A stretch of 64,000 nt of DNA, taken from Candidatus Binataceae bacterium. Its GTDB lineage: Bacteria > Desulfobacterota > Binatia > Binatales > Binataceae. Positions 4,055 through 37,084 of the stretch are shown piece by piece. Numbering within the stretch: position 1 is the first letter of the stretch; each line of letters begins with the position of its first letter. The notes under the pieces were generated by a model. The model saw only the letters and a program-made list of their open reading frames with translations, searched no databases and was not told the origin of the DNA. Position numbers and translations under genes: made by a program. The stretch lies in the NCBI GenBank assembly GCA_035308025.1, contig DATGHL010000030.1, positions 52,946 to 116,945 on the forward strand, in the 5' to 3' direction.

Positions 4055-4129
4055 TGGGCCCACCAGGATTTGAACCTGGGACCAGCCGGTTATGAGCCGG
4101 CAGCTCTGACCAGGCTGAGCTATGGGCCC
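4055..4129 (-). tRNA. tRNA with anticodon CAT (elongator Met, or Ile2 if lysidinylated)
   Basis: The reverse complement folds as a cloverleaf. Acceptor stem GGGCCCA/TGGGCCC; U8 A9; D-stem GCTC/GAGC. Anticodon stem GCCGG/CCGGC with loop CTCATAA. T-arm CCAGG-TTCAAAT-CCTGG; discriminator A. CCA is not encoded. The anticodon stem lacks the three consecutive G-C pairs of initiator tRNA. Confidence 0.8.
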
Positions 4130-4278
4130 CAGTAAATGCATTTCGGGTGGCAAGGCAGGAATGATTCTAGCGTTTTCGCGGGCGCAAATTAAGCCATGCT
4201 GACTGGGAGTCCCATTGCCATTTTCTACGCTAACGGAATTCGCTCGCCGATCAGTTTCCCTCGGTCCTACAGAAGTCG

Positions 4279-6087: not shown

Positions 6088-6105
6088 GACTCCATCACGA
6101 CTCCG

Positions 6106-6825: not shown

Positions 6826-6949
6826 CAGACAACCACGCGCGCCGAAGGCCTCGCAACTGACTGGGCGCGGAATCTCAACAGGGTCTTACGCGCTGGCGTG
6901 GGTTCGCCTATCCTCTCCTCGAACTGATGTCGCACCGGATCGACACGCC

Positions 6950-8565: not shown

Positions 8566-8567
8566 GC

Positions 8568-9527: not shown

Positions 9528-9529
9528 CT

Positions 9530-10393
9530 TTAAGCAAACTTGCGGATCAGCGAGGCATAGCGCTCTAAGACCGGCCACTGCTTGTCCGGCTTGGCGACGG
9601 GTATGAGAAATCCGACGCGATTGAATCCCAGTTTCAGAAGTTCCTGAATCCGCCCTTCGAGCCCGCCCGCCGGCGCCATCTCGAAGCCGGTAAGCACGCT
9701 GAGATCGAACGCCTCTTTGGGCCGCCCCAGCCGCGCGGCTTCTGTGCGCATCGCTTCGAGGCCGCCGGCCAAATCGGCTCCCACGTCCAACGGAATCCAG
9801 CCGTCGCAGTATTCGGCGACGCGCTTGGGCGCCCACTTCGACCACGCGCCGAGGATAACCGGCGGCCCACCGGCCTGGACCGGCTTCGGCCAGCACCAAA
9901 GCGGGTCGAAATTGACGAACTTGCCGTGATACTCAGCGACGTCCTTGCTCCAGATTTCCCGCATCGCGAGGATCCGCTCGCGCGTGATCTTCCAGCGATC
10001 TTTGAATTCGGCGCCGTGGTCCGCCATCTCCTCGGCGTTCCAGCCGGCGCCGATCCCGAAGAGCAATCTGCCGTTCGACACGTGGTCGAGACATGCGACC
10101 ATCTTCGCCAGATTCATCGTGTTGTGCTCGGGCACCAGGCAAACCGATGTTCCGACTTTGATTTTCGTCGTGACGGCAGCCGCGGCGCTCAACCCGATGA
10201 AGGGATCGAAGAATTCCTTGTAGTAGACCGGTAGTTCGCCGCCCAACGGGAACGGGGTCTTGCGGCTGGTCGGAATATGCGAGTGTTCACCGAACCACAG
10301 CGATTCGAAGCCCTGCGCCTCCGCCCAGCGCGCGAGTTCTGCGGGTTGAATCGTGTAGTGCGTCGGAATTGCGATTAAACCAAAGTCCGGCAT
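9530..10393 (-). CDS. LLM-class (luciferase-like) F420-dependent oxidoreductase
   Basis: 287 aa TIM-barrel LLM family. It is convergent with gshB across a 2-bp gap. Confidence 0.8.
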   Translation of the reverse strand: MPDFGLIAIPTHYTIQPAELARWAEAQGFESLWFGEHSHIPTSRKTPFPLGGELPVYYKEFFDPFIGLSAAAAVTTKIKVGTSVCLVPEHNTMNLAKMVACLDHVSNGRLLFGIGAGWNAEEMADHGAEFKDRWKITRERILAMREIWSKDVAEYHGKFVNFDPLWCWPKPVQAGGPPVILGAWSKWAPKRVAEYCDGWIPLDVGADLAGGLEAMRTEAARLGRPKEAFDLSVLTGFEMAPAGGLEGRIQELLKLGFNRVGFLIPVAKPDKQWPVLERYASLIRKFA

Positions 10394-10859: not shown

Positions 10860-11966
10860 GATTTGCTCCGCTCCGAAGATTCCCGTGCAATGCGTCGAGA
10901 GGATACCGCCCTGGGCGTGCACCAGCGCAATTTTCGCGTTGGCAACCTGGCGCGGACCGCATTCACCGCGCAACTGGCGAACCGCCTCGGTCACCGAGAA
11001 GATCGACCCCGGATGGCCCGGATGGCAATGCGAAAGCAGCCCGCCATGCGTGTTGACCGGCAGCTCGCCGCCCAACTCGATACGGCCCCCTTCGACGAAG
11101 CGACCGCCCTCGCCTTTCGGGCAGAAACCGAGATCCTCGAGTTCGATAATCACGACCGGCGTGAAGCAGTCATAGAGCTCCGCGACGTCGATATCCTTCG
11201 GCTGCAGTCCCGCCATCGCGTAGGCGCGCTCGCCGGCCTCCTTGGCGGCCGACGCGACGAAGCTGTGGGCTTGGCTGATATGTTCGTGCGAGTGGCCCTC
11301 GCCGATGCCGAGCAGGTAAACCGGCTTTTGCTTGAAATCGCGCGCGCGCTCCGCCGAGGTCATGATAATCGCGCCGCCGCCATCGCTCACCAGCGAGCAG
11401 TCCAGCAGGTGGAGCGGGTCGGCGATCAGCCGCGAATTCAGGACATCATCGATCGTGATCGGATCACGCATCTGCGCCGCCGGATTCATCGAGGCGTGCT
11501 TGCGGCACACGACCGCGACGGCCGCGCGCTGCTCGTCAGTCGTGCCGTAGGCGTGCTGATGAGCCCGCGCGACGAGCGCATAAAAGGCCGGAATCGGCGC
11601 GCCATAAGGACGCTCGAATTGCGGATGACCGGCGCCGGCCATCGCCTCGATCGCCTTCGCGCGCGAGAGCCCGGTGACCTGGCTGTCGGCCATCGTGATC
11701 AGCACCGTCTTGCACATGCCGGTCAGAATCGCCGAGGCGGCGTGATGCATAATCGCCAGCGTCGTGCCTCCGCCGGAGGGCGCGGTGATGCAATAGCGCG
11801 GGAAAATCTGCATGTACTCGGCGATCATCTCGGCGTGGTAGAGGAAGGGCTCGACGAAGGAGACGCAGGTGATCAGGCCGTCGATGTCGTCCTTGGTCAG
11901 GCCGGCGTCATCGAGCGCGCGGCGCGCCGCCTGCACGTAAAGCTGCGTCGCGCTCATCCCGCGCAC
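10857..11966 (-). CDS. Thiolase-like protein (SCP-x/lipid-transfer-type, DUF35 partner)
   Basis: 369 aa thiolase fold. The catalytic Cys region and the C-terminal GGG..HC.G.PGS motif are present. Confidence 0.8.
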   Translation of the reverse strand: MRGMSATQLYVQAARRALDDAGLTKDDIDGLITCVSFVEPFLYHAEMIAEYMQIFPRYCITAPSGGGTTLAIMHHAASAILTGMCKTVLITMADSQVTGLSRAKAIEAMAGAGHPQFERPYGAPIPAFYALVARAHQHAYGTTDEQRAAVAVVCRKHASMNPAAQMRDPITIDDVLNSRLIADPLHLLDCSLVSDGGGAIIMTSAERARDFKQKPVYLLGIGEGHSHEHISQAHSFVASAAKEAGERAYAMAGLQPKDIDVAELYDCFTPVVIIELEDLGFCPKGEGGRFVEGGRIELGGELPVNTHGGLLSHCHPGHPGSIFSVTEAVRQLRGECGPRQVANAKIALVHAQGGILSTHCTGIFGAEQI

Positions 11967-12037
11967 GACGCCGACGGCGGTGTCGCCGACGCCGACGATC
12001 GCAACTTTGTTCTTGAGTGATTCCGTAGGCGACGCTC

Positions 12038-13165
12038 CTAATTCATCGGGAACCCGAAGACCCGGCCGACGTTGTCATGCACCATCTTGCGCGTATCCGC
12101 CGCAGGAATATCGGCGAAGTTCGACGCGACCTTCCTGCGCGAAAAGGGCCAGACGCCTTCGGTATGCGGATAGTCGGAACCCCACATAAGATTGTCGACG
12201 CCAATCATTTCACGTGTCAGCACGCCCGCGCGATCATCCTCGAAGGTGGCGAAAAATTGCCGATGAAAATAGTAGCTCGGAGTCTCGACCAGCTTCGGCT
12301 GCATCCAGCCCTTGTGGTCATCCCACCAGTGGTCCATGAAACTCAGCACTGAGGCGATCCAGCCGATGCCGCCTTCGACCATCGACCATTTCAACCTCGG
12401 GAAGCGCATCGGCGCGCCGCCCCAGATGAGCCGCATGATTGTGTCTGACATCCCGAATTTCACGACGCCGACGTTGATTCCGCCCGCGCCGGGACCGTGC
12501 GCGATTCCGTAAGGCTCGCGCCCGCTGAGATGGAGTCCGGCGATCATGTTCAAATCCTGCAACGCTGCCCAGAGTTCGTCCCACTCGGGCAGGTTGTAAG
12601 CGCGATCATCGACCCAGGCCGGCAGCATGATCGTCACCAAACCGAGTTTCGCCGCGCGCTGCGCTTCCTTCACTGCCCATTCGACCGGACCGCGATTGGG
12701 CAGCATCGCCGCGCCCTTCAACCGATTCGGATGGACCGCGCAATACTCGGCGAGCCAGTCGTTGTAAGCGCGGCACGACGCATAGATGTATTCGGCGTCA
12801 GGCGAGCGAATGATGTGCAGGCCGACGCCGGGATAGATCACCTCGCCGGAGACGCCATCGAGATCCTGATCCTTGAGGCGGGCGTTCGGCTCCCACGAGC
12901 CTTCGCGATTTTGCTCGTAGCGATAGCCCTTGGGCACCGGGATTTCGATCCCCTGCGCCTTCAGGTCCGCCATCGGCCCCTCGAAAGCCAACGGCCGCGG
13001 CCGGAGGCCCTCGATGACGATGTAGTCGCCGGACTCGTCGAGCGCGCGGATGCGCGGGGCTTTGTCGCGCCACTTGGCGTCCATCCGCGTCTCCCACAGA
13101 TCGCGCGGCTCCATGATATGGGAGTCGGCTGAGAGCAAACGTTCCGTGTATTGAGCCTCGGCCAT
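12038..13165 (-). CDS. Amidohydrolase-2 family protein (metal-dependent hydrolase/decarboxylase, PF04909-like)
   Basis: 375 aa. N-terminal SADSHIMEP and C-terminal GSDYPH motifs. Confidence 0.78.
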   Translation of the reverse strand: MAEAQYTERLLSADSHIMEPRDLWETRMDAKWRDKAPRIRALDESGDYIVIEGLRPRPLAFEGPMADLKAQGIEIPVPKGYRYEQNREGSWEPNARLKDQDLDGVSGEVIYPGVGLHIIRSPDAEYIYASCRAYNDWLAEYCAVHPNRLKGAAMLPNRGPVEWAVKEAQRAAKLGLVTIMLPAWVDDRAYNLPEWDELWAALQDLNMIAGLHLSGREPYGIAHGPGAGGINVGVVKFGMSDTIMRLIWGGAPMRFPRLKWSMVEGGIGWIASVLSFMDHWWDDHKGWMQPKLVETPSYYFHRQFFATFEDDRAGVLTREMIGVDNLMWGSDYPHTEGVWPFSRRKVASNFADIPAADTRKMVHDNVGRVFGFPMN

Positions 13166-13351
13166 GAAATCCTCCGCCGGGTCGAGCGCAGCTCTGCCCG
13201 CCTCATCACTCTTACCGCGTCACGGGCGTTGCCGCCAAGCCTGACGGTCGATTTCGTCAGCACTCGCATTCTGAAGCGGTCGTTACGGTTTGTCTGGCGT
13301 GCCGCTTATCCTGATAATCAACCCCATCGCATGTGCGGATGGGGAAAGCTA

Positions 13352-14988: not shown

Positions 14989-15933
14989 ATGCCGCAATTT
15001 TCCGTCATCATACCCGCGTTCAACGCGGCCGCCACCATCGCACGCACCGTCGAGTGCGTACTGGCACAAACCTCCAGTGACTTCGAGATCATCGTCGTCG
15101 ACGACGGCTCAACCGACTCGACGCGCGAGGTGCTCGAGCGTTATGCGGCACAGATTAGAATCGTCAGCCAGGCGAATCGCGGCCTCTCGGCGGCGCGCAA
15201 TGCGGGCGCAAGCTTGGCGCGCGCGCGATGGCTCGCCCTGCTCGACGCCGACGATACCTGGACGGCAGACAAGCTCGAGGAAATCGCGCGGGCTCTCCCC
15301 CTCTATCCCGACGCCGTGATGTTGTTCTCGGACGCGATTTGCTTCGACCTGAGCGGGACGATCGCGCACGGCCCCTTCATGCCGCCGCAGCTCGCGCACG
15401 CGCCTTCGCGTGAGGAAATGATGGCCGGGCGCTTCCAGATTCTGCCGAGTTCGGCGGTAATTCGGCGCGACACCTGGGAGCGCGCCGGCGGCTTTTCGGA
15501 GGAGTTTCACGGCGCTTCGGGGTTCGAAGACGCCTGGTTCTGGCTGCTCCTCCGAGAGCAGGGACCCTTCGCCTACCTGCCCGCGCGCTTGGTCAACTAT
15601 CGGGTCGCCCCGCTAATCACTCGACTCGAACGCTACCGGCCCGGCTTCGCGATCTTCACGCGCCTCGTGCGTGAGCGTTACGGCGTCGCCGGGGAGCCAC
15701 TGATCCGGGCGCGGCGCGACGCACGGGTGAGCCTCTGGGCGCGCGCTGGTCTCATCGCGCTGGCTGAAGGGCGCGCAGCCGAGGCGCGCTACGCCTTTCG
15801 CAATGCGCTCCGCGAAAATCCGCAGCGCCTGAAAAATCTGCTGCGGCTCTGCCGAACTTACCTGCCGACAGCGCTCGCGCGCGCACTGACGAAATCAGCT
15901 CGTGACCGGGCCTCGACGGACGAGCCGGAGTGA
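14989..15933 (+). CDS. Glycosyltransferase family 2
   Basis: FSVIIPAFN...VVDDGSTD, with DAD/DXD motifs. Confidence 0.8.
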   Translation: MPQFSVIIPAFNAAATIARTVECVLAQTSSDFEIIVVDDGSTDSTREVLERYAAQIRIVSQANRGLSAARNAGASLARARWLALLDADDTWTADKLEEIARALPLYPDAVMLFSDAICFDLSGTIAHGPFMPPQLAHAPSREEMMAGRFQILPSSAVIRRDTWERAGGFSEEFHGASGFEDAWFWLLLREQGPFAYLPARLVNYRVAPLITRLERYRPGFAIFTRLVRERYGVAGEPLIRARRDARVSLWARAGLIALAEGRAAEARYAFRNALRENPQRLKNLLRLCRTYLPTALARALTKSARDRASTDEPE

Positions 15934-16193
15934 AATACCACATCGCCCGACCTGTCTTGAGGCAGCCGCACCACTGGCGAGGACAGCGCCATCGGACGGT
16001 CCGCTTGCCATCGGGCGCGAGAAGCAGCTAGGGTGATATGGACTGATCGTTCAAACTTACTTTGACAAACATTCATAAAGAGTAATCCATGTCGACACTG
16101 TATGGCGTTCCAGCTTTCCCCTTTGGGAGGCTGATGCGGCCCGGCCGCGTCGAATAGTCGAGCCTAGCGCGCCGTCTCATCGGAGGAGTTCGC

Positions 16194-16847
16194 TTGACCC
16201 CAACGGAAGAGGCTATGGGCAATGCCATTAGATCGAATGATGGGAGCTCGCGGCGGACGCGCCGCGAGGTGCTCAAAGCTGCGGCGGGGCTGTCGGCCGC
16301 ATTTGGTCTCGAGCTTATCCTAGGTGGCTGGACGCGCGCGGCCGTCGCCGCCGACCTCGCGAAAGTCAAGCTGATCGATTTTTCTGACGCCGGCGAGAAC
16401 CGCGGGCAGGTGTCACTGGACAAATTCGTCTTGAGCGACGCGCAATGGCGTCAGCGGCTGACGCCTGAGCAGTATGAGATCACGCGTGAGGCGGGGACCG
16501 AGCCGCCCTTCCACAACAAATACGACGAGTGGCACGAGGCCGGTATCTATCGCTGCATCGGTTGCCGCACGGCGCTCTTCAATTCGGCGGCAAAATTTGA
16601 TTCCGGCACCGGCTGGCCGAGTTTCTGGTCGCCGATTGCCCCTGAAAATATCGCCACGCGGAGCGATCATTCGTTCCTGATGGCCCGCACCGAGGTTCTC
16701 TGCCGCCGCTGCGACAGCCATCTGGGCCACGTCTTCGACGACGGTCCGCCGCCAACCGGACTGCGCTACTGCATGAACTCGGCGGCGCTGACTTTCGTGC
16801 CCTTCGCGCGTCCCGCGCTTGCGCGAGCCTCGGGAGCAACCGGATGA
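16194..16847 (+). CDS. msrB: Peptide-methionine (R)-S-oxide reductase MsrB with a Tat signal peptide
   Basis: SelR domain with two CxxC pairs (CIGC...CRRC) and the RYCMNSAAL motif. The N-terminus carries a twin-arginine motif (TRREVLK), a hydrophobic stretch and an AxA site. Confidence 0.85.
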
Positions 16848-17497
16848 AAGTGCGCGCGCCGCGCCGTGAGCAGCCGCTCGCGATTCGCGTCGCGCACTGG
16901 TGCAATGCGCTGTTTCTGGTCCTGATGGCCGGCAGCGGCCTGCAGATTTTCGCCGCCTATCCCTCGCTGGGCCCGCAGGGCGATGAATATTCGTGGTATC
17001 CCTTTCAGGACACGCCGCCGCCACACTGGCTGACCATCGGCCGATGGCTTGGAGGCGGCAGGCACTGGCATTTCGCGATCGCGTGGTTTTTCATCCTCAA
17101 CGGTCTGTTTTACCTCGGCTACTTTTTTCTGAGTGGCGAATGGCGGCGGCGGCTCTTCCTGCCGGGCCGCGATGTGGTCAATGCGCTCCGGCAATTCGGT
17201 TACTATCTACGATTGCGCAAAACTCCGCCGCCGCCGGATTTTTACAACGGCCTGCAGCGCCTCGCTTATACGTCGGTAATTCTCTTCGGGGCCGTGATGG
17301 TCGTCTCAGGTCTCGCGATCTACAAGCCGGTGCAATTGCACTTTCTGACGATGTTGTTCGGCGGCTACGACGGCGCGCGCGTCGTGCATCTCGCGGGTCT
17401 CTGTTTGTTTGCCCTGTTTGTCGTGACCCATCTGATCCTGGTCGCGAGCCATCCGCGTGAGATCGTCAAGATGTTCACGGGAGGCGAACGTGGCTAG
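16844..17497 (+). CDS. Membrane b-type cytochrome (cytochrome b561/hydrogenase cyt-b-like)
   Basis: 217 aa with about 4-5 TM helices and conserved His residues in the TM segments (RVAHW, GRHWHF, VTHLIL). Its start overlaps the msrB stop. Confidence 0.65.
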
Positions 17498-18182
17498 CCT
17501 GATTGCGCGCCGCAAGTTCCTCGCGGGCGCGGCCGCGCTAACGCTGCTGGCCGGATGCGAAAGCCGGCCGGCTAACGCGTTTCTCGAGCTGATGCGGGGA
17601 TGGAACGAAAAGGCCGAGGGCTGGATGTTCTCGCCGACGCGCCTGGCGCCGGAGCTGCCCGAGGACGACGAGACCGACGAAGAGGATTTCCCGAAATATT
17701 TCATCTCGTCCACGACGCCGATCGCGCCCGCGAACTGGACGCTCAAAATCGGCGGCCTTGTGCAGAATCCGATGATCCTGACACTCGCCCAGTTGCAGGC
17801 GCTGCCGCCGACCGCGATGCGCGTGCGGCATCACTGCGTCGAAGGTTGGTCAGCGGTAGCCGCGTGGCGTGGCGTGCGATTGAACGAGATTGCGCGGCTC
17901 GCGGAAGTCGATCCGCGAGTGCGCTATGTCGAGTTCCGCTCCTTCGACAAGAACTACTATTCGGGATGGGATCTCGCCAGCGCGATGCATCCGCAGACCC
18001 TGCTGGCCTACGGGATGAACGGTCACACGCTCGGTCCTGATCATGGCGCGCCACTGCGGCTATATTCGGCAGTCAAGCTCGGCTACAAGATGGTCAAGTA
18101 CTTGACCGAAGTTAATTTCCTTCCGCACAAGGTAGGCGGCTACTGGGAAGATCAGGGTTACGAGTGGTTCGGCGGCGTCTGA
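17457..18182 (+). CDS. Molybdopterin-dependent oxidoreductase (sulfite oxidase/YedY-MsrP family), Tat-exported
   Basis: Tat motif RRKFLAGAAALTL and the Moco-binding core (HHCVEGWS...YGMNG...PLRL). Confidence 0.8.
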   Translation: MRSSRCSREANVASLIARRKFLAGAAALTLLAGCESRPANAFLELMRGWNEKAEGWMFSPTRLAPELPEDDETDEEDFPKYFISSTTPIAPANWTLKIGGLVQNPMILTLAQLQALPPTAMRVRHHCVEGWSAVAAWRGVRLNEIARLAEVDPRVRYVEFRSFDKNYYSGWDLASAMHPQTLLAYGMNGHTLGPDHGAPLRLYSAVKLGYKMVKYLTEVNFLPHKVGGYWEDQGYEWFGGV

Positions 18183-25498: not shown

Positions 25499-25729
25499 GT
25501 GCCGCAGTTCCAGTACACCGCAGTTTTCGAGCCGGCTCCGGAGGGCGGCTTCACCGTAACCGTGCCGGCTCTTGCAGGGCTTGTGACCGAAGGCGATACG
25601 CTCGAGGAAGCTCGCGAGATGGTGAAGGACGCGATTCGCGGGTATCTGGAAAGCCTGCTCGCGCATGGCGAGGAGATTCCGATTGAACCTGGCCTCGCGA
25701 GCGTCGAGCGCGTCGCGGTAACGATTTAG
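25499..25729 (+). CDS. hicB: HicB-like antitoxin (UPF0150 domain only)
   Basis: 76 aa. RNase-H-like HicB N-domain (YTAVFEPAPEGGFTVTVPALAGLVTEGDTLEEA). No DNA-binding extension. Confidence 0.78.
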   Translation: MPQFQYTAVFEPAPEGGFTVTVPALAGLVTEGDTLEEAREMVKDAIRGYLESLLAHGEEIPIEPGLASVERVAVTI

Positions 25730-27945: not shown

Positions 27946-29595
27946 ATGCTGTACGAACCGAATAACAGCCTCGCAAACTATGATTACATCATAGTTGGGG
28001 CCGGTTCGGCCGGCTGCGTGCTCGCGAACCGCCTGTCGTCCGACCCGGACGTGCGTGTGCTGCTAGTCGAGGCTGGGCGCTCTGATCGCAATCCGTTGAT
28101 TCATATTCCGGCGGGCGCGCTGCCGATGAAGCTCTATGGGTTGAATTCCTGGACTTACTTCACCGAGCCGCAACAGCATCTGAAGAGTCGCAAGTTGCAT
28201 TGGCCGCGTGGCAAAGTATTGGGCGGTTCGAGCGCGATCAATGCGATGGTATATATGCGCGGGAATGCCAGCGATTACGATCGTTGGCGGAATCTCGGCA
28301 ACGTCGGTTGGTCGTATAATGACGTGCTGCCCTACTTCATCCGCTCCGAGGACTTTGCTGCCGGTGCCGACGAATACCATGGCACTGGCGGGCCGATTAA
28401 GGTGACGGTCAACGCTGCCATAAATCCGATCACAGAGGCCTTCCTGAACGCTGCGCAGGCGGCAGGCTATCCGTATAACCCTGACGTCAACGGCGGCACG
28501 CAAGAGGGCTTCGGCCCGCTCTACTCGACGATCTGCGCGGACGGGCGGCGTCAAAGCACGGCGGTTGCCTACCTGCGTCCGGCGCTGGGCCGCACCAATT
28601 TGAGCGTCGTCACGAAAGCGCGGACGCGGCGGCTTCTGTTCGAGGGGACGCGAGCGGTCGGGCTGGAGTATCTGACTGGGCGGCGGACCCATGAGGTGCG
28701 GGCGGCGCGCGAAGTGATCCTTTGCGCGGGCGCGATCAACTCGCCGCAAATCCTGATGCTCTCCGGGGTCGGTGATGCCGCACAATTGCGCCGCTTGGGG
28801 ATCGCGCCCGTGATCGATCTCAAGGGCGTCGGGCAAAATCTGCAGGATCATCTGGCGGTTGACCTGCAGGTGAGCTGTCCGTTGCCGGTCTCGCTGTATC
28901 GGGAGTTGGCGCCCCATCGGATGGCGTGGTCGCTCGTGCGCTATCTGATATACGGGACCGGGCCGCTGGCGAGCGTAGGGCTCGAAGCCTCGGGGTTTAT
29001 CAAGACGCAGGCAGGAGAATGCGCGGCGGATACCCAGTATCATTTTAGCTCGGGGCTGGTTTATCGCGGGGTCAGCACCGGTCCGGTGCGCCGCCACGGT
29101 TTCTATGTCCGCAACTGCCAGTGCCGGCCGCGCAGCCGCGGTTATATTGCGCTGCGCTCGGCCGATCCATTGGCCGATCCGATTATCGAACCCAACTATC
29201 TGGAAGCCGAGTCCGACCGCCGCTTGCTGCGCGAGGGCTTCAAGGTCAGCCGCGAGATCGTCGCGCAGGCCGCGATGAGCGCCTTTCGTGGCGCCGAACT
29301 ATGGCCCGGACCCGAGGTGCGCAGCGACGCGCAAATCGACGACTGGATCGGCGACGCGGGCGTGACGTCGTTTCATCCGGCGGGCACCTGCAAGATGGGT
29401 CATGACGAGCTCGCGGTGGTTGACGATCAATTGCGCGTGCATGGCCTCGAGGGGTTGCGCGTCGTGGATACCTCGATCATGCCCCGGCTGGTGAGCGGCA
29501 ATACGAATATGCCGACCATCATGATCGCCGAGAAAGCCGCGGATCTGATCCGCGGCCGCGCCGCGGTTCTGTTGGCCTCGGCGGCCAACCAATAG
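27946..29595 (+). CDS. GMC family oxidoreductase (choline dehydrogenase-like)
   Basis: 549 aa. N-terminal FAD motif YDYIIVGAGSAGCVLANRLS and the C-terminal GMC signature with the His pair. Confidence 0.88.
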   Translation: MLYEPNNSLANYDYIIVGAGSAGCVLANRLSSDPDVRVLLVEAGRSDRNPLIHIPAGALPMKLYGLNSWTYFTEPQQHLKSRKLHWPRGKVLGGSSAINAMVYMRGNASDYDRWRNLGNVGWSYNDVLPYFIRSEDFAAGADEYHGTGGPIKVTVNAAINPITEAFLNAAQAAGYPYNPDVNGGTQEGFGPLYSTICADGRRQSTAVAYLRPALGRTNLSVVTKARTRRLLFEGTRAVGLEYLTGRRTHEVRAAREVILCAGAINSPQILMLSGVGDAAQLRRLGIAPVIDLKGVGQNLQDHLAVDLQVSCPLPVSLYRELAPHRMAWSLVRYLIYGTGPLASVGLEASGFIKTQAGECAADTQYHFSSGLVYRGVSTGPVRRHGFYVRNCQCRPRSRGYIALRSADPLADPIIEPNYLEAESDRRLLREGFKVSREIVAQAAMSAFRGAELWPGPEVRSDAQIDDWIGDAGVTSFHPAGTCKMGHDELAVVDDQLRVHGLEGLRVVDTSIMPRLVSGNTNMPTIMIAEKAADLIRGRAAVLLASAANQ

Positions 29596-29600
29596 TCGCG

Positions 29601-30620
29601 TCATCGCGCCGGCAATGCGAACGCCTGCGCGAGTAATTCGTAGGAACGCAGGCGCGCCTGATGGTCATGTACGATCGTCACGACCATCAGCTCATCTACT
29701 CGCAGCTCATCGGCCATCAGCGTCAACTGATCGCGCACCCGCTCCGGCGCGCCGACGACGTAGCGGGGATACTCGCCGGTCTGCTCATGCGCGATTGGCG
29801 CGGCGTCGGGACCAAGTTCGCGCAGGGCCTCCGCGACGGTCGGGATGGGCCGCACGTCACCCTGACGGATGCGGCGGCGGAAGAGACGGGCACTCGCGAG
29901 CAGCCGCTGGGCCTCGGCGTCAGTCTCGGCGCAGACCACGCCCAACGCCAGTATCGCATGCGGGGCCCGCAGGCCAGATTTGGCCGCGGCAAAGTTCGCG
30001 CGATAGTGTGAGATCGCCGCCTGCACCGGTCCGGGCTCGATAAAATGCGCGAAGGCGTAAGGCAAACCGAGCTGCGCCGCCGCCGAAGCGCTCCACATGC
30101 TCGAACCGAGCAGCCAGACCTCGGGCCCCCCCGGCATCTCGGGCGAAACCTTGATCTGGCTGAACGGATGTTTGGGCGGAAAATCATGATTGAGAAAAGC
30201 TATCAGCTCGACCATCTGCTGGCCGAAATCATCCGGCGGCGGATAGTGCGCGCGATCGCGCCAGAGCGCGAAGGAATCGAGCGGCGTGCCGCCCGGAGCG
30301 CGTCCAATCCCGAGATCGATCCGGTTGGGATAGAGCGCGTGGAGCAGGCGAAAGTTCTCGACCACCTTGAACGGACTGTAATGCGGCAGCATCACGCCGC
30401 CCGAGCCAACGCGGATGGTGGAGGTCTCGGCGGCGACTCGCGCAATCAGAATCTCCGGCGCTGGGCTGGCCAGGGCCGGGATCGCGTGATGCTCGGCAAT
30501 CCAGTAGCGCGCGTAGCCAAGCCGATCGGCAAGGCGCGCCAGTTCTATCGTATTGTGCAAGGCGTCGGCGGGCGTGCAGCCCTCCGGCACCGGCGATTGA
30601 TCGATAACTGAAAGCTTCAC
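29601..30620 (-). CDS. LLM-class flavin-dependent oxidoreductase (luciferase-like)
   Basis: 339 aa LLM TIM-barrel (YhbW-like). Confidence 0.85.
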   Translation of the reverse strand: MKLSVIDQSPVPEGCTPADALHNTIELARLADRLGYARYWIAEHHAIPALASPAPEILIARVAAETSTIRVGSGGVMLPHYSPFKVVENFRLLHALYPNRIDLGIGRAPGGTPLDSFALWRDRAHYPPPDDFGQQMVELIAFLNHDFPPKHPFSQIKVSPEMPGGPEVWLLGSSMWSASAAAQLGLPYAFAHFIEPGPVQAAISHYRANFAAAKSGLRAPHAILALGVVCAETDAEAQRLLASARLFRRRIRQGDVRPIPTVAEALRELGPDAAPIAHEQTGEYPRYVVGAPERVRDQLTLMADELRVDELMVVTIVHDHQARLRSYELLAQAFALPAR

Positions 30621-30635
30621 CGATTGAATCTTACG

Positions 30636-32195
30636 CTACTTGCCGGAGAGCTGCGCGAAGCGCTCCGGATGCGCGGCGCGGGCTTGCTGCTCGAGCGCGT
30701 CGAGGCGTCCGGCCAGCGCATCGATTTGCGCGTCCTTCTGCTTCAGCACGGACACCTCATGCTGGAGCGTGGCGATTTGCGCATCCTTGTGCGCGAGCTG
30801 GCTAACCTGCTGCTGCAGCGACTGATTCTCCCGTTTCAACTTCTGCATCTCGTTGAGCAGCATCGCTGGGAGGACGTGATAGGCGACCGTCTCATGCTTG
30901 CCGTCGGTGCCGTTGACCACCAGCTCGGGATAGACCTTCGCGACCTCTTCGGCGATCAAGCCGTACTGCTGAGTCCCGGTCGGGTCGGCTTTGTAGCGAA
31001 AGGCCACCGGCCGTAAGCGCATCAGGTTGTCGCTGGCGTCGCCCATGTCGCGGACGTCGCGCTTGTAGCGCGCTGAGGAGGATACGACCCCGAGCTGTCC
31101 GTCCGAATTGACCACGACGGCGGCTCCCCCCGAAACGCCAGTATCGCTAATGCCGGCGATAAACGTTGCGGTCTGGGTGCCCGTGGTGCCGATCCTGATC
31201 GTGTTCGATTCCCCCGCGACACCGGCATCGTATATATCGATGTTGCTGCTGCCGGTAGTGAGATTGCTGCCAGCACTTTCGCCGATCGCAATATTGCTGC
31301 CGCCTGTGCTGTTGTTTACGAGCGCGTTTGCTCCAGCGGCCGTATTGCCGGTACCAATGGTATTATCGTTTAGGGCACTTGCACCGCTAGCGGTATTGTT
31401 GCTGCCAGTTGTGGTGTTACTGAGGGCACTCGCGCCACTGGCGGCGTTACTGGTGCCCGTGGTGTTGCTGAACAAGGCTAAGGCGCCGAAGGCCGCGTTG
31501 GCTGCGCCGGAGGTATTGTTGTTGAGGGCGCTCAGGCCGCTGGCCGTGTTTTGGGCCCCGGTGGTGTTCTGGGTGAGGGCACCGTAGCCGGTAGCTGTGT
31601 TGTTGCTGCCGACGGTGTTGAAATAAAGAGCGCTCACGCCGATGGCGGTGTTGCCGGTGCCCGTGGTGTTGCTGAGTAGCGCGTTGAGTCCATCGGCCGT
31701 GTTTAAATCTCCTGTAGTGTTGCTCAGCAGGGCATAGTCGCCGGTAGCCGTATTGTTGACACCCGCGGTGTTGTTCTCGAGCGCTTCGAAGCCGGTGGCC
31801 GTATCGCCGCTGCCGGTGGTGTTGTTGAGCAATGTGTCGAGGCCGACCGCCGTGTTGGCGAAACCCGTGGTGACGTTGACTCCTGGTCCAGCGGGACCGG
31901 CGGGTCCCTCTGGTCCTGACGGTCCGGCTGCGCCCGCCGCTCCAGCAGGCCCGGTGGGTCCGGCTGGCCCAGTTGGCCCGGCCGGACCCGTCGCACCCAA
32001 CGTGTCCGCCGTCTGTTTCGACGTACAGCCTTGCCCACTTTTGACAAAAGTGGGTTTCCCGGTCTTGTCGTTTACGCACACGGTGATGGCTGTCTGTGCT
32101 GCGGCGACTCCGCCTGCAGCTACCGTGACAATCATTACAAGCGCCGCTAGATAATTCCGTCGCAGCGCCGAACCAGCTTGCCCTGCCCGTGCCAT
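30636..32195 (-). CDS. Secreted collagen-like/tail-fibre-domain protein with 17-residue repeats and a C-terminal peptidase S74 intramolecular-chaperone domain
   Basis: 519 aa. N-terminal signal peptide, about 13 Gly-X-Y triplets (GPAGPTGPAG...), and eleven 17-aa repeats of the form NT[AT]xG..AL..NTTG... The C-terminus carries the intramolecular-chaperone motif RYKRDVRDM...LRPVAFRYK...GLIAEEV..V.PELV followed by a coiled-coil. The underlying 51-nt DNA repeats create spurious overlapping ORFs. Confidence 0.8.
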   Translation of the reverse strand: MARAGQAGSALRRNYLAALVMIVTVAAGGVAAAQTAITVCVNDKTGKPTFVKSGQGCTSKQTADTLGATGPAGPTGPAGPTGPAGAAGAAGPSGPEGPAGPAGPGVNVTTGFANTAVGLDTLLNNTTGSGDTATGFEALENNTAGVNNTATGDYALLSNTTGDLNTADGLNALLSNTTGTGNTAIGVSALYFNTVGSNNTATGYGALTQNTTGAQNTASGLSALNNNTSGAANAAFGALALFSNTTGTSNAASGASALSNTTTGSNNTASGASALNDNTIGTGNTAAGANALVNNSTGGSNIAIGESAGSNLTTGSSNIDIYDAGVAGESNTIRIGTTGTQTATFIAGISDTGVSGGAAVVVNSDGQLGVVSSSARYKRDVRDMGDASDNLMRLRPVAFRYKADPTGTQQYGLIAEEVAKVYPELVVNGTDGKHETVAYHVLPAMLLNEMQKLKRENQSLQQQVSQLAHKDAQIATLQHEVSVLKQKDAQIDALAGRLDALEQQARAAHPERFAQLSGK

Positions 32196-32382
32196 AGATC
32201 GTTCCTCCGCTGGCGAATCGCCAACCGAGGGAGCCTAACAGAGCTTCGATGCGAGTGTCACCGCGTCACCGTGCAACTTGAAGCGCGGCGGCGAAGTGCG
32301 CTAAGCAATCATCAGGCGGAAGCGTGACGGCACATCGGGCCGTATGCGCGATATCAGCTCCGCCGTTCGTCAGGAGGCTTCA

Positions 32383-33498
32383 ATGCACGTCGGTTATGGT
32401 GCGGTGTTTCAGAATCCCGGCAATGCTCTTTCGGATACTGAGGTTTGGCGGCACGAGGTGCGGCTGGCCGAGATGGCCGAGCCGCTCGGCTTTGATTCGG
32501 TCTGGTCGATCGAGCATCACTTCGACGACTACACGATGTGCCCCGATCCGCTGCAATTTCTCACCTACATGGCCGGCGCGACGAAGAAAGTGAAGCTCGG
32601 CTCGATGGTCGTGGTGTTGCCGTGGCACGATCCAATTCGCGTCGCCGAGCAGGTTTCAGTGCTCGACCACCTGTCGAACGGCCGCTTCATCCTCGGGATC
32701 GGCCGCGGGCTGGCGCGGATCGAATACGAGGGCTTCCGGCTCGATCAGAACGAAGGTCGCGCGCTCTTCGTCGAGTACGCCGAATTGATTTTGAACGCGC
32801 TGGAGAAGGGCTATATGGAGGGCGGCGCGATGACCAAGCAGCCGCGCCGCGATATCCGCCCCTTCCCGGCGCGATCGTTCCGCGGACGCACCTATGCCGC
32901 CGCGGTCTCGCCGGAATCGATGCCGATCATGGCCAAGCTCGGAGTCGGCGTGCTGGTCATCCCGCAGAAGCCGTGGGATGCGGTCAAGCAGGACTTCGCG
33001 GTCTATCACAAAGTGTGGCGCGAGGTGAACGGCACCGAGCCGCCTCATCCGTTGAGCGGCGGCTTCATCTTCGTCGACGAGGACAAGTCGCGCGCGCAGG
33101 AGTTGGGGATGAAGTACATCACCGACTACTACCACACGGCAATGCGCCACTACGAAATGACGGCGGAAAAATTTGGCTCGCACAAGAGCTACGAATTCTA
33201 CAGCCACGTCGGCAAATATATCGCCAAGCACGGCATGGACGAGGCGGCGAAAGATTTTGCCGAGCTGATGCCCTTCGGGACGCCCGCGCAGGTGCTCGAA
33301 AAGCTACGCTTCATGCAGGAAACCATCAACATGGACGGGGTGATGGGCAACTTCGCCTATGCCGGAATGCCCTTCGACGAAGCCGAACGCAACCTCAAGT
33401 GCTTCGCAACCAAGGTGATGCCGGAGTTGAAAAAGTGGCAGGCGACGCCACTCAAGGAAGGCGCTGCGCTCAAAGGAATCGGCGCGCAAGCCGCCTGA
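32383..33498 (+). CDS. LLM-class flavin-dependent oxidoreductase
   Basis: Luciferase-like monooxygenase fold. Confidence 0.85.
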   Translation: MHVGYGAVFQNPGNALSDTEVWRHEVRLAEMAEPLGFDSVWSIEHHFDDYTMCPDPLQFLTYMAGATKKVKLGSMVVVLPWHDPIRVAEQVSVLDHLSNGRFILGIGRGLARIEYEGFRLDQNEGRALFVEYAELILNALEKGYMEGGAMTKQPRRDIRPFPARSFRGRTYAAAVSPESMPIMAKLGVGVLVIPQKPWDAVKQDFAVYHKVWREVNGTEPPHPLSGGFIFVDEDKSRAQELGMKYITDYYHTAMRHYEMTAEKFGSHKSYEFYSHVGKYIAKHGMDEAAKDFAELMPFGTPAQVLEKLRFMQETINMDGVMGNFAYAGMPFDEAERNLKCFATKVMPELKKWQATPLKEGAALKGIGAQAA

Positions 33499-33746: not shown

Positions 33747-34571
33747 TCAGGCCACCTTTGAGATGAACGTCTCGGCCTGCGTCGCGAACTCGTTCGCACT
33801 CGCATAGCGGCCCAAATCGAGAATGAAATAGGTCGCGCCGGCTTCGCGTTCAGCCTCGACTCGCGCCCGTGCCGCACCGAGGTCGTCAAACTTCATCCCG
33901 CGACGCACGACGATTTCGAGATCGTCCGTGCGGCCTTGCGTGCGCATCTGACTCTTCAGCGACGTAACGGCCGGGGCAAGTTTGTCGGCCGCGAGCATCG
34001 GATGCCATCCCGCGCCGAACTCGAGGACACGTCGCACGGCGGCGTCACCGTTGCCGCCGATCCAGATCGGCGGGGCTTGCGGGCGCGGTGAAAAGACGAA
34101 GGGCGGAAAGCTGACGAGATTCCCGCAGTAGGCTTCAGCGTCGCGCGTGAACAAATGTCTGATGACGCGCAGGGTTTCGTCGCTGAGCCGGCCGCGCATC
34201 CGCTTGTCGACGCCGAGCGCGGCGAATTCAGGCTTCATCCAGCCGACGCCGACCCCGAGGATCATCCGTCCGCCCGAGAGCTCCTGGATGGTGGCGACCT
34301 GCTTGGCGGTCAGCACCGCAGGCCGATACGGCAGCACGAGCACCGAAATGCCGAGACGAATCCGTTCGGTCGCGCCGGCGAGGTAGGCGAGCGTCGCGAG
34401 AACGTCGAGGTAACGGCCCCCGGAACCTTCAGTCTCGTCCGGCGGGATGCAGAGGTGGTCAGAGACGAAGACCGCGTCGAAGCCGAGTGACTCGGCAGCG
34501 GCTACGCAGGCGCGAATCGTCGCGGTCGTCGATTGCGGCCCCATGTTGCGCACGGCGATGCCATATTTCAT
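33747..34571 (-). CDS. LLM-class F420-dependent oxidoreductase
   Basis: TIGR03619-like N-terminus (MKYGIAVRNMGP) and the LLM core. Confidence 0.85.
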   Translation of the reverse strand: MKYGIAVRNMGPQSTTATIRACVAAAESLGFDAVFVSDHLCIPPDETEGSGGRYLDVLATLAYLAGATERIRLGISVLVLPYRPAVLTAKQVATIQELSGGRMILGVGVGWMKPEFAALGVDKRMRGRLSDETLRVIRHLFTRDAEAYCGNLVSFPPFVFSPRPQAPPIWIGGNGDAAVRRVLEFGAGWHPMLAADKLAPAVTSLKSQMRTQGRTDDLEIVVRRGMKFDDLGAARARVEAEREAGATYFILDLGRYASANEFATQAETFISKVA

Positions 34572-34614: not shown

Positions 34615-35223
34615 TCAACGGCGCAGGCCCATCGCGTCGAGTTTCTTGACGATCCACGCAATCCGATCGTTGCCCCAGAATGGCTCGCCCGCGACGATCA
34701 GCATCGGCACGCCGAAAACATGATCGCGCTCGCCCTGCGCCAGCGCGTCGGCGAGCGCCGCCGGCCCATCGCGGTTGACGAAGCGGCGAAACTCGGCGGC
34801 GTCGAGACCAATTTCACTGATCACCGCGGCGAGCGCATCGACGCTTTCGAGATCGATCTCGCGCGCGAAAAACCGCGCGAAGACCAGCCGCGAGTATTCG
34901 CGAAAGCGTCCGTTGCGCTCGGCGAAGATTCCGCTGGTGAGCGCGAGGCGGCTGTCGAAAAGCCTCTGCGGCCCGCGAATGATAATCCCGCGGTCGCGAG
35001 CGAAACGGCGGGCGTCCTCGTAGAGGTAGCGGACTTTGAACCAATCGCGTTCCGTCCGCTGCGGCAAATCGCCGCCAAAAGCCCGAAAATCGAAGCCGTG
35101 CGGCGTGAAGACGATTTGCACGCGATGACTTCGCTCAAGGTCGAGCGCCGGCTCAAAGGCCAGCCAGGTGAAAGGACTCTTGTAGTCGTAGTAGAACCTG
35201 ACGGTTTCGAGTACTTCGGCCAT
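34615..35223 (-). CDS. DsbA-like thioredoxin-fold protein (2-hydroxychromene-2-carboxylate isomerase family)
   Basis: 202 aa. HCCA isomerase/GST-kappa-like motifs, with the N-terminus YYDYKSPFTWL. Confidence 0.72.
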   Translation of the reverse strand: MAEVLETVRFYYDYKSPFTWLAFEPALDLERSHRVQIVFTPHGFDFRAFGGDLPQRTERDWFKVRYLYEDARRFARDRGIIIRGPQRLFDSRLALTSGIFAERNGRFREYSRLVFARFFAREIDLESVDALAAVISEIGLDAAEFRRFVNRDGPAALADALAQGERDHVFGVPMLIVAGEPFWGNDRIAWIVKKLDAMGLRR

Positions 35224-36443: not shown

Positions 36444-36695
36444 ATGACTTATCGCACGCGACTGTCGAGCAAGGGACAGATCGTTTTGCCGAAACCGCTG
36501 CGTGTTGCCCGTCGATGGAGTCCCGGGACGGAATTCCTCCTCGAAGAACACGGCGCCGGCCTTTTGCTCAAGCCCGGCGTCTCAGGCTCATCCGATTGGG
36601 CGTCGCTGATCGGCGCCGCCGACTATCGCGGACCGCGCAAAAGCCTCAAGGAGATGACCGAGGCGATTAACGTCGAAGCGCGCAAACACCGGTGA
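36444..36695 (+). CDS. vapB: AbrB/MazE-fold antitoxin (VapB-like)
   Basis: 83 aa with the SpoVT/AbrB swapped-hairpin motif SSKGQIVLPKPLR. Confidence 0.75.
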   Translation: MTYRTRLSSKGQIVLPKPLRVARRWSPGTEFLLEEHGAGLLLKPGVSGSSDWASLIGAADYRGPRKSLKEMTEAINVEARKHR

Positions 36696-37084
36696 TTGCC
36701 GTCGATACTAATGTCCTGGTGCGCATCATCGTCAACGATGAACCATCGCAAGCGGCGCGCGCCGCGGTCTTCCTGCGTGCTCAGGAGCGCGTCTTTATAG
36801 CCAAAACCGTCATGCTCGAACTTGAATGGGTGCTGCGCGGCGCGTACCGCCTCGCCCGCGGGACTATCGCGGCCGCGCTCCGGCGGGTGCTTGAGTTTCC
36901 GAACGTAGAAGCCGAGGATCCCGCGGCCGTGACAGCGGCGCTGCGCTGGTACGACCAGGGACTGGATTTCGCCGACAGCCTGCACGTTGCCTCCGCCGGA
37001 CATGGATGTAAGTTCGCAACCTTTGACGGCGCCTTGCGGCGGCGCGCCCGCCGCTTGCGCGCTATTACGCTGGCGGATCTTTGA
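36692..37084 (+). CDS. vapC: PIN-domain toxin VapC
   Basis: 130 aa. N-terminal IAVDTNVLV and downstream acidic PIN residues. It overlaps vapB by 4 nt. Confidence 0.85.
   Translation: MIAVDTNVLVRIIVNDEPSQAARAAVFLRAQERVFIAKTVMLELEWVLRGAYRLARGTIAAALRRVLEFPNVEAEDPAAVTAALRWYDQGLDFADSLHVASAGHGCKFATFDGALRRRARRLRAITLADL

Follow-up and report, generated by a model that had tools for sequence, protein, structure and literature searches.

A phage-tail-fibre homologue with a signal-peptide-like N-terminus and an S74 chaperone terminus in a Binataceae chromosome

Among chromosomal homologues of phage tail fibres, the MAT (mosaic adhesive trimer) proteins of Bdellovibrio bacteriovorus are the only case that has been studied experimentally, and those that were examined in tagged form localized to the cell surface (PMC10769870). 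The S74 subgroup of these proteins, e.g. Bd3182 (PMC10769870), is chromosomal, non-phage and signal-peptide-bearing, forms multi-copy families and carries a beta-helix before a C-terminal self-cleaving S74 domain. Related chaperones have been solved for K1F endosialidase (3gw6), the GA-1 neck appendage (3gud), S16 gp37 (6f45) and the MyRF ICA (7dc3), each of them C-terminal to a trimeric domain. In phages, the gene for the tail fibre gp52 of Pelagibacter phage HTVC111P belongs to the tail-gene region, where it lies 3' of the tape-measure gene and has a putative tail protein gene as its immediate predecessor. A further point of comparison is Bacillus BclA (1wck), in which a GPT/GPA-rich Gly-X-Y run lies beside a trimeric globular or beta domain.

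Here, a gene that resembles each of these systems in part was analyzed in a 64-kb window (the whole stretch of DNA under study, 64,000 nt) of a 159-kb contig from a soil bacterium of the Binataceae (Binatota), whose LepA shares 83-89% identity with Binataceae/Binatus proteins. The gene is chromosomal, outside any prophage within the window, and probably encodes a fibre precursor, homologous to phage tail fibres, that is made and exported by the cell. Coordinates of its features in the window are as follows.

30636-32195, minus strand: complete coding sequence of the fibre precursor, 519 aa plus stop (ORF list)
32204-32208, minus strand: Shine-Dalgarno sequence GGAGG, 8 nt 5' of the ATG (read from the sequence)
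32097-32195, minus strand: residues 1-33, signal-peptide-like N-terminus (sequence, hydrophobicity, AlphaFold helix)
31998-32096, minus strand: residues 34-66, short stretch of low pLDDT that contains the two cysteines C40 and C57
31881-31997, minus strand: residues 67-105, 13 collagen-like Gly-X-Y triplets (sequence, Pfam, PDB sequence match)
31245-31856, minus strand: residues 114-317, twelve 17-residue repeats NTAxGxxALxxNTTGxx, one predicted beta-helix coil each
31080-31244, minus strand: residues 318-372, conserved module end NIDI..GESNTIRIGTxGTQTxTFIAGI..VVVxxxGQLG (alignments A1, A2)
31062-31079, minus strand: residues 373-378, S-S-A-R-Y-K, with predicted catalytic Ser373 and Lys378 and a cut predicted at S372|S373
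30639-31079, minus strand: residues 373-519, Peptidase_S74 intramolecular chaperone fragment (PF13884, profile and Foldseek matches)
30672-30881, minus strand: residues 439-508, long C-terminal helix, coiled coil (AlphaFold pLDDT 92-98; weak coiled-coil Pfam matches)
29601-30620, minus strand: LLM oxidoreductase gene 3' of the fibre gene, GTG start 15 nt past the fibre stop

Architecture of the predicted fibre

The ORF at 30636-32195 is a genuine gene: as stated by a first-pass annotation of this DNA, it encodes a 519-aa product; it is intact and preceded by a GGAGG ribosome-binding site, and the same 519-aa gene was called by JGI on contig Ga0209167_10000042. An exact-sequence cluster look-up with the protein returned no entry, an NCBIfam search yielded weak coiled-coil noise only, and no paralogue was detected elsewhere in the 64-kb window by tblastn. 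No terminator was found between the fibre stop and the start of the downstream LLM oxidoreductase gene; the two genes are probably co-transcribed, which implies no functional link.

The N-terminus, previously described as a signal peptide, is signal-peptide-like by a simple hydrophobicity heuristic. It contains the basic residues R3, R12 and R13 and a hydrophobic stretch L16-A33 (best 12-residue Kyte-Doolittle mean 2.76), after which stands a signal-peptidase-type site, A31-A32-A33|Q34, where the chain would be cleaved. Export by the Tat route via R12-R13-N-Y-L seems unlikely, as the RR is missing from P0001, the closest relative (74% identity). A lipoprotein via C40 was rejected; 'ITVC' is located 7 residues beyond the hydrophobic stretch and is not a canonical lipobox. 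In a motif search of all fetched proteins, segment 34-66 was common only to the fibre and P0001.

The Gly-X-Y triplets at residues 67-105, estimated earlier at about 13, number exactly 13 and run without interruption. When the Pfam run named by the first-pass annotation was carried out, PF13884 scored above its cut-off and Collagen (PF01391) just below, with 26.8 bits against 27.2. A single-sequence query of PDB sequences matched only BclA and collagen peptides, BclA (1wck) being the best solved-structure sequence match (E=9e-7). A GPT/GPA-rich Gly-X-Y run is common to both proteins, and the collagen repeats drive this match; BclA has a C1q-like end and neither S74 nor beta-helix repeats. Within the collagen stretch, Tandem Repeats Finder reported an 18-nt repeat at 31948-31982.

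Behind the collagen, 12 units in register follow the consensus NTAtGasALlnNTTGsg, and their 17-residue periodicity is far above chance (lag-17 identity 0.55 vs 0.13 +/- 0.024 in 2000 shuffles). Eleven near-perfect repeats had been reported; the twelve units found share a mean pairwise identity of only ~53% in protein and ~59% in DNA. Because of this low identity, the array is not obviously slippage-prone. The longest exact DNA repeat within it is 20 nt, and Tandem Repeats Finder found no 51-nt tandem array in the fibre gene, only short collagen-region repeats. A repeat-motif search gave 11 matches in the query and likewise 11 in P0001, so that the proposed tendency to vary in repeat number was not borne out. 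The repeat model superposes best on right-handed beta-helices, and the repeats are predicted to form such a helix; the AlphaFold models are monomers, in which an intertwined trimer and three side-by-side beta-helices look alike. Of the earlier likening of the array to a trimeric beta-helix or to Hep_Hag-like head repeats, the Hep_Hag part is not supported, as neither PF05658 nor the YadA anchor was matched at E<=1.

By sequence, motif and fold, the assignment of the C-terminus to S74 holds. A significant PF13884 match, whose absence had been set beforehand as a refutation, was found at residues 373-426 (E=3.7e-13, 50 bits vs a cut-off of 22, model positions 1-57/58), and the motifs quoted earlier are present. 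S373, S374 and K378 are invariant in alignments of 69 and 86 sequences, an SSxxxK motif is present in 117 of 120 relatives, and SSARYK fits the SDxxxK motif described for the start of the S74 domain (PMC10769870). Since the single-sequence search of the PDB was insufficient, S74 structures were reached with the family profile, which matched the S16 tail-fibre chaperone 6f45 (E=6.9e-6), MyRF 7dc3 and 8jov. With the C-terminal AlphaFold monomer model (pLDDT 86), Foldseek retrieved the MyRF ICA 7dc3 (E=7.8e-5, probability 1.00), 3gud (probability 0.99) and, more weakly, 3gw6. The solved chaperones share the Pfam family, the Ser/Lys motif and the fold with the fibre, but are only 11-21% identical to it in structural alignments, and the fibre helix, with ~70 residues, is much longer.

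The chaperone 373-519 is predicted to be released by self-cleavage. The coiled-coil end noted at first pass is present as a long helix, but not as a separate feature: it sits in the fragment that would be released, and its beginning could be aligned with the chaperone of a phage tail fibre. On the other side of the predicted cleavage site, and adjoining it, lies the module end 318-372, which in multi-module relatives is found again ahead of every collagen linker and has low pLDDT in monomer models; it would be the distal tip of the processed fibre.

Proposed assembly and comparison with MAT fibres

For this precursor we infer export, trimerisation, cleavage, location and adhesion along the following lines. 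The N-terminal signal peptide would guide the chain, still unfolded, through the inner membrane and be cut off after A33. The chaperone would align three chains, the long helix forming a coiled coil as expected from the family, and folding would proceed from the C- to the N-terminus, beginning with the 318-372 end, continuing with the 12-coil beta-helix and finishing with the 13-triplet collagen. Ser373, activated by Lys378, would cut between S372 and S373 and free the 147-residue chaperone, while the mature chain 34-372 (339 residues) would remain in a stable trimer with a length of ~17-20 nm, as estimated from standard collagen and beta-helix geometry. Outside the cytoplasm, the mature fibre would most likely be structural or adhesive.

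By analogy, the fibre may work like the S74-type MAT fibres of Bdellovibrio, which would make it a surface adhesin. Tested for MAT membership, the protein shows the S74 terminus with its catalytic motif but not the conserved ~130-aa beta-rich domain that directly follows the signal peptide in MAT proteins (PMC10769870); only 33 residues (34-66) precede its collagen. MAT proteins comprise ~1000 aa and no collagen has been reported for them, whereas the fibre has 519 aa and a collagen stretch. The MAT capping-loop motif V-G-G/N-x-x-x-P-x-x-x-L is impossible in the fibre because its residues 106-395 contain no proline, and no solved MAT chain was matched in sequence searches with the fibre or the family profile. 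Receptor-binding tips are usually variable. The region before the cleavage site, the would-be distal tip, is conserved across the family, which counts against reading the fibre as adhesive.

It is rather unlikely that the N-terminal helix stays uncleaved and anchors the fibre in the inner membrane, as a periplasmic structural element and not a surface adhesin. In line with such an anchor, residues 9-32 were modelled as a single helix by AlphaFold, and a fibre of ~17-20 nm would probably not clearly span the periplasm and the outer membrane. Likewise, Pfam and the flanks of related loci revealed neither an outer-membrane anchor or targeting feature nor a secretion partner nor a conserved neighbouring gene, and there was no secretion or anchoring partner among 1,288 clustered flank ORFs (related genome loci and the contig of the window). 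However, the AAA|Q site after the hydrophobic stretch and the surface location of the tagged Bdellovibrio proteins speak against retention at the inner membrane. Quite improbable, in our judgement, is a Thr/Asn-rich beta-helix that is itself the functional surface (e.g. ice-, mineral- or polysaccharide-binding) and not a passive shaft. T, N and A account for more than half of the residues in the repeat region, and the variable positions fall inside the repeats while the tip is conserved, but the very same repeats form the shafts of tail fibres in marine phages and coliphages.

Phage relatives and genomic setting

As judged by its alignments, the fibre is homologous to real phage tail fibres. 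PHROG virion and tail-spike families match at E=2.7e-49 (phrog_23837), 6.3e-42 and 1.6e-28 (phrog_4636, tail spike), and PHROGs 23837, 6002 and 4636 carry the repeats and the S74 module as in the fibre. HTVC111P gp52, which also has an S74 end, is 50% identical in its repeats, and IMG/VR contig 3300027857_000011 (35.8 kb, with a terminase) harbors two such fibre genes, the product of one sharing 46% identity over 258 aa. Shared with the phage fibres, at 46-50% identity in the aligned parts, is the succession of the 17-residue array, the '..NTIRIGT..IAGI..GQLG' end, S(S/D)xxxK, S74 and a helix. Unlike the protein described here, the phage fibres have no signal peptide but N-terminal virion-side domains, their genes lie amid tail, terminase and similar phage genes, and they extend ~40 residues less far beyond the catalytic Ser (median length of this tail 95 aa in viral contigs vs 136 aa in genomes; 147 aa here). 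Thus, of what marks a phage fibre, homology to virion families was found, whereas a phage-genome setting and an export-free virion-attachment N-terminus (N-terminus judged by heuristic) were not.

The genomic setting is in agreement with the first-pass annotation, which had described LLM oxidoreductase neighbours, an absence of phage or integration features nearby, and a gene that is not a phage remnant. The fibre gene has LLM oxidoreductase genes to its left and right. Pfam-labelled gene calls, which cover nearly the whole 64-kb window, comprise housekeeping and metabolic genes and no phage, integrase or transposase gene. The sole tRNA of the window (tRNA-Met, 4055-4129) is 26 kb away, the base composition and GC content of the fibre gene are those of its flanks, and the LLM-LLM-fibre order upstream is conserved in P0001. 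Among the 79 closest genome loci (MAGs throughout, mostly from soil or peat), there is no recurring phage gene family. A signal-peptide-like N-terminus was scored by the hydrophobicity heuristic in 78% of genome copies and 20% of viral copies, and in a nearest-neighbour test 111 of 113 genome copies and 65 of 75 viral copies segregated with their own kind. The strong homology to virion and tail-fibre families of phages would suit a tail-fibre leftover of a decayed prophage, or mobile-element cargo, with no function for the cell, but the neighbours, the composition, the conserved gene order, the intact ORF with its good ribosome-binding site, the N-terminus and the clustering of genome copies argue against this reading and make it very unlikely.

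Tailocins, contractile injection systems and gene transfer agents assemble in the cytoplasm. Because this conflicts with the N-terminal export signal (heuristic), we give very little credence to the idea that the gene encodes the fibre of such a cell-encoded particle, e.g. an extracellular contractile injection system, with its other genes elsewhere. The protein also has no baseplate-attachment domain in the short segment before the collagen, and the flanks of the 79 related loci show no recurring sheath, tube or baseplate family. On the other side, S74-ended, collagen-containing fibres have been reported for contractile injection systems (PMC12923769), and the part of the genome covered here is the 64-kb window. 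A further, highly improbable reading is that the genome-encoded, signal-peptide-bearing clade secretes mimics of the tail fibres with which phages of its own habitat are equipped; these would block phage adsorption by coating the surface receptors of the cell itself or competing for them, or would serve cell-cell recognition. Tandem paralogues could then track different targets, and the coil, longer by ~40 residues, could be adapted to trimer assembly after export. That the protein is a trimeric autotransporter adhesin, as JGI names several relatives and as its N-, T-, A- and G-rich, head-repeat-like units might suggest, is scarcely credible, and membership is refuted by the absence of the defining C-terminal anchor (no YadA anchor, PF03895, or Hep_Hag, PF05658, at E<=1, and a C-terminus made up of S74 and a helix) and opposed by the superposition on right-handed beta-helices, the head of YadA being a left-handed roll.

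The protein is not unusual: at E<=1e-10, its family numbers >32,000 clusters. Taken by itself, the gene adds a further member to this very large family, which has been annotated before, is for the most part unstudied and carries the NCBI label 'tail fiber domain-containing protein'. Homologues occur in Verrucomicrobiota, Acidobacteriota, Binatota and Planctomycetota; a literature search on the family in soil phyla returned nothing specific. Chromosomal phage-fibre homologues with signal-peptide-like N-termini are carried by many uncultured bacteria of the environment, mostly of soil and peat; they are often tandemly duplicated (30 of the 79 closest loci) and have a chaperone coil ~40 residues longer than in viral copies. 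If these are true surface fibres, they may be a main route of attachment to particles, polymers or other cells. Among the 1,288 clustered flank ORFs, the sole recurrent neighbour is a regulator with winged-helix and TPR domains.

Architecture of the fibre protein

The fibre gene has a GGAGG ribosome-binding site 8 nt 5' of its ATG, as found by sequence inspection, and an identical gene was called by JGI on the 159-kb metagenome contig Ga0209167_10000042. The following parts were distinguished.

Parts of the fibre gene and its product
30636-32195, minus strand: fibre coding sequence, 519 aa (ORF list)
Residues 1-33: signal-peptide-like, with 3 arginines, a 17-18-residue hydrophobic stretch and an AAA/Q site (hydrophobicity score 2.76)
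Residues 34-66: short segment with two cysteines, found otherwise only in the closest relative, P0001
Residues 67-105: collagen-like, 13 uninterrupted Gly-X-Y triplets (sequence)
Residues 114-317: twelve 17-residue repeats
Residues 318-372: segment conserved throughout the family
Residues 373-378: S-S-A-R-Y-K motif opening the S74 domain
Residues 373-519: Peptidase_S74 domain, then a helix of ~70 residues at the end (Pfam and AlphaFold)

Other ORFs overlap the gene (30624-31016, 31108-31587 and 31753-32154, all on the plus strand, and others in other frames or on the opposite strand). They have the appearance of shadow ORFs in a repetitive, GC-rich gene, and none is among the JGI gene calls.

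The signal peptide proposed in the first-pass annotation is retained as a signal-peptide-like N-terminus, graded by a simple hydrophobicity score, which is a heuristic, and by the AAA/Q site. The roughly 13 collagen triplets counted there were recovered, and the Pfam Collagen model scored 26.8 bits, just below its cut-off of 27.2. Identity at a lag of 17 residues was 0.55 compared with 0.13 ± 0.024 in shuffled sequences, a period far above chance expectation. Eleven near-perfect repeats had been reported; the 17-residue array was confirmed, but it counts twelve units with ~53% mutual identity as protein. At the DNA level the units are 59% identical, the longest exact repeat is 20 nt and Tandem Repeats Finder detected no 51-nt array in the fibre gene; the sequence therefore gives no reason to expect replication slippage or frequent changes in copy number. 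Searching for the repeat motif gave 11 matches in the fibre protein and 11 in P0001 (74% identical); the repeat-number variation that had been anticipated is not supported.

In the full-length monomer AlphaFold model (pLDDT 84-91 throughout the repeats) strands recur at an exact 17-residue spacing, and thus one coil is formed per repeat. All low-rmsd superpositions of the repeat model (2.5-3.1 Å, ~200 residues) were with right-handed beta-helices. A Pfam search of the fibre protein at E ≤ 1 gave no match to Hep_Hag or YadA-anchor, so that neither the suggested Hep_Hag-like repeats nor the label 'trimeric autotransporter adhesin', which JGI gives to relatives, is supported; a trimeric autotransporter identity was likewise rejected for the fibre protein itself. 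Residues 318-372 were of low confidence in both monomer models, as would be expected if this segment were intertwined within a trimer.

The fibre protein belongs to the Peptidase_S74 chaperone family by model score, motif and fold, as its C-terminus had been read. PF13884, a Pfam model that spans only the first ~58 residues of the domain, matched with E=3.7e-13 (50 bits, cut-off 22). S373, S374 and K378 are invariant in alignments of 69 and 86 relatives, and S373-K378 conforms to S-(D/S)-x-x-x-K, the motif that PMC10769870 describes for S74 chaperones. The family profile matched 6f45 (long tail fibre of phage S16, chaperone end, E=6.9e-6), 8jov (another tail fibre) and 7dc3 (MyRF ICA domain). 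When residues 318-519 were modelled with AlphaFold (pLDDT 86), the fold resembled the MyRF ICA domain best (E ~8e-5, probability 1.00), followed by GA-1 (3gud) and K1F (3gw6). Cleavage is predicted between S372 and S373, which would yield a mature chain of 339 aa (residues 34-372) and a released fragment of 147 aa. The C-terminal coiled coil described earlier corresponds to the ~70-residue helix, into the start of which the 6f45 alignment extends; it is part of the predicted released chaperone fragment and not a separate feature.

Phage relatives and chromosomal setting

The whole repeat and S74 unit matched PHROG virion and tail-spike families (E=2.7e-49, 6.3e-42 and 1.6e-28). Judged from sequence, the phage likeness covers this entire module, beyond the C-terminus alone, and the fibre protein is a homologue of phage tail fibres. 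In the cultured Pelagibacter phage HTVC111P, tail fibre gp52 shares the repeats at 50% identity and likewise ends in S74. It is encoded among the tail genes of that phage, immediately behind a gene for a putative tail protein and downstream of the gene for the tape-measure protein. At least 488 relatives were found in IMG/VR, many on viral contigs of ~30-40 kb. One of these contigs, from JGI sample 3300027857, close in number to that of the window (3300027867), carries a terminase, an Erf recombinase and two adjacent fibre genes with the repeat and S74 module, one of which was compared and is 46% identical over 258 aa. Both of these fibres are without a signal peptide, whereas the window fibre has a signal-peptide-like N-terminus.

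Genome and viral copies were picked by similarity to the family, and the figures are therefore indicative and no phylogeny: a signal-peptide-like N-terminus was present in 78% of genome versus 20% of viral copies, the median tail past the catalytic Ser was 136 aa versus 95 aa, and in a nearest-neighbour test of the S74 region the partner was a genome copy in 111 of 113 genome cases and a viral copy in 65 of 75 viral cases. The copies departing from this pattern sit on short fragments (7-16 kb) or on viral-labelled contigs measuring 83-582 kb. Family members were also seen on huge viral-labelled contigs of 374-582 kb (L086, L087, L110, L111, L113) and on giant-virus MAG (GVMAG) contigs in IMG/VR (L088, L104, L115, L116). 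In the same test most of them have a bacterial copy as nearest neighbour. They may represent cellular DNA assigned to viruses in error, or genuine genes of giant viruses or jumbo phages.

Nearly the whole window is covered by gene calls for which Pfam labels had been precomputed. These comprise housekeeping genes (DnaG, LepA, CarAB, pyrimidine synthesis, RecG, RecO, glutathione synthetase, signal peptidase) and metabolic genes (acyl-CoA dehydrogenases, four luciferase-like monooxygenase family (LLM) oxidoreductases, a GMC oxidoreductase), with no capsid, terminase, portal, tail, integrase or transposase gene among them. The sole tRNA lies 26 kb from the fibre gene, the GC of which (0.61-0.66) equals that of its flanks. 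LepA shares 83-89% identity with proteins that carry the name Candidatus Binataceae or Binatus, which places the host in the uncultured phylum Binatota. The gene content agrees with the earlier description of LLM neighbours and no phage hallmarks nearby; the fibre gene is neither a phage nor a prophage gene.

Neighbouring genes in the window
9530-10393, minus strand: LLM oxidoreductase (PF00296)
about 25499-25729: separate HicB-like antitoxin gene (converted from gene calls of locus L001)
27946-29595: GMC oxidoreductase (gene call)
29601-30590, or 29601-30620 with the GTG start, minus strand: LLM oxidoreductase, around the fibre gene
32383-33498, plus strand: LLM oxidoreductase, around the fibre gene
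33747-34571, minus strand: LLM oxidoreductase, around the fibre gene
34615-35223, minus strand: DsbA-family thioredoxin-fold gene, ~2.4 kb from the fibre gene
about 36444-37084: PIN-domain toxin gene and small upstream partner gene (converted from L001 gene calls)

The downstream LLM gene begins 15 nt past the fibre stop codon and no terminator was found in between, so the two genes are probably co-transcribed. P0001, on a different metagenome contig, keeps the order LLM(+)-LLM(-)-fibre(+) of the window, which speaks in favour of vertical descent, with a fixed position in the chromosome.

Directly upstream of P0001 its contig (JGI sample 3300050821; genes 3461-3898 and 4079-5737) carries an extra stand-alone Peptidase_S74 ORF of 145 aa; it may encode a free-standing chaperone or be the remnant of a gene. 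The window also holds several genes for acyl-CoA dehydrogenases and enoyl-CoA hydratases, and the PIN and HicB-like genes are small toxin-antitoxin modules amid housekeeping DNA. The DsbA-family gene is not far from that of a fibre whose mature N-terminus carries two cysteines, and locus L013 likewise has a DsbA-family gene (43% identical) in the vicinity of its family member; with two loci only, this proximity is probably coincidence.

Proposed assembly and possible location of the fibre

Chaperone-driven folding followed by cleavage has been shown for phage endosialidase and tail-fibre chaperones. For the fibre protein the sequence, motif, fold and context are established, and the following scheme, like the location and any binding function, is inferred as the most likely one. 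The chain would be exported via its N-terminal signal peptide, the C-terminal chaperone and coiled coil would put three chains in register, and folding would proceed from C to N, with the beta-helix first and the collagen helix after. Cleavage by Ser373 and Lys378 would then remove the chaperone; the product would be a stable trimeric fibre with a length of roughly 17-20 nm, as estimated from standard geometry (39 collagen residues at ~0.29 nm and 12-13 coils at ~0.48 nm). The tip preceding the cleavage site is conserved and variable positions lie inside the repeats, which suggests that any binding specificity would reside on the beta-helix surface rather than the tip.

Among the mosaic adhesive trimer (MAT) fibres of Bdellovibrio, self-cleavage was shown for the cellular S74-type protein Bd3182 and was blocked by replacing the Ser with Ala, and those MAT fibres that were tagged and tested could be detected at the cell surface (PMC10769870). 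By analogy the fibre protein would work like an S74-type MAT fibre, but it is no strict MAT protein because the defining N-terminal domain and capping-loop motif are absent. Since neither an outer-membrane anchor (Pfam on the protein) nor a secretion partner (flank ORFs of related loci) was found, a periplasmic or membrane-anchored fibre is a serious alternative to a surface position.

Family distribution and multi-module relatives

The first-pass annotation had correctly read an ordinary member of a large, annotated and experimentally almost untouched family, which comprises 71,393 clusters at 50% identity with E ≤ 1e-3, 32,496 with E ≤ 1e-10 and 9,967 with E ≤ 1e-30, with member lengths from about 400 to >5,000 aa. 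The value of follow-up lies in the wider genome-encoded clade with a signal-peptide-like N-terminus and an extended coil. The 79 best loci among species-representative genomes are all from MAGs, mostly of soil or peat, and belong mainly to Verrucomicrobiota, Acidobacteriota, Binataceae, Proteobacteria, Planctomycetota and Armatimonadota. Clustering of 1,288 flank ORFs identified 138 family members across these loci, 30 of which carry two to seven copies in tandem, and no phage gene family recurring in the flanks.

The sole recurrent neighbour, within 10 kb of a family member in 15 of the 79 loci and absent from the window, is a membrane-anchored regulator that combines TPR repeats and a transmembrane segment with a DNA-binding domain of the OmpR winged-helix type. 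One or more occur per locus: in L066 at 5596-9639, 11493-13244 and 15405-18053, and further in L011, L015, L021, L028, L032, L045, L053, L056, L063, L068, L072, L074 and L076. It could be a dedicated regulator of family members, or its proximity could merely mirror how common such regulators are in Verrucomicrobiota and Acidobacteriota.

Fusion of collagen to S74 has already been described for viral and injection-system fibres (PMC12923769 for injection systems). In multi-module relatives collagen runs lie between modules, immediately past the '..VVVDxxGQLGT' module end, and therefore collagen in this family would serve as a trimeric linker or stalk. Giant relatives (P0121-P0260) carry repeat-array modules in series, as in P0134 (5494 aa), P0123 (5301 aa) and P0127 (1545 aa); the three collagen runs of P0127, of 18-44 triplets each, all follow immediately after a '..GT.K/GxQxATYxAGI..G.LG' module end.
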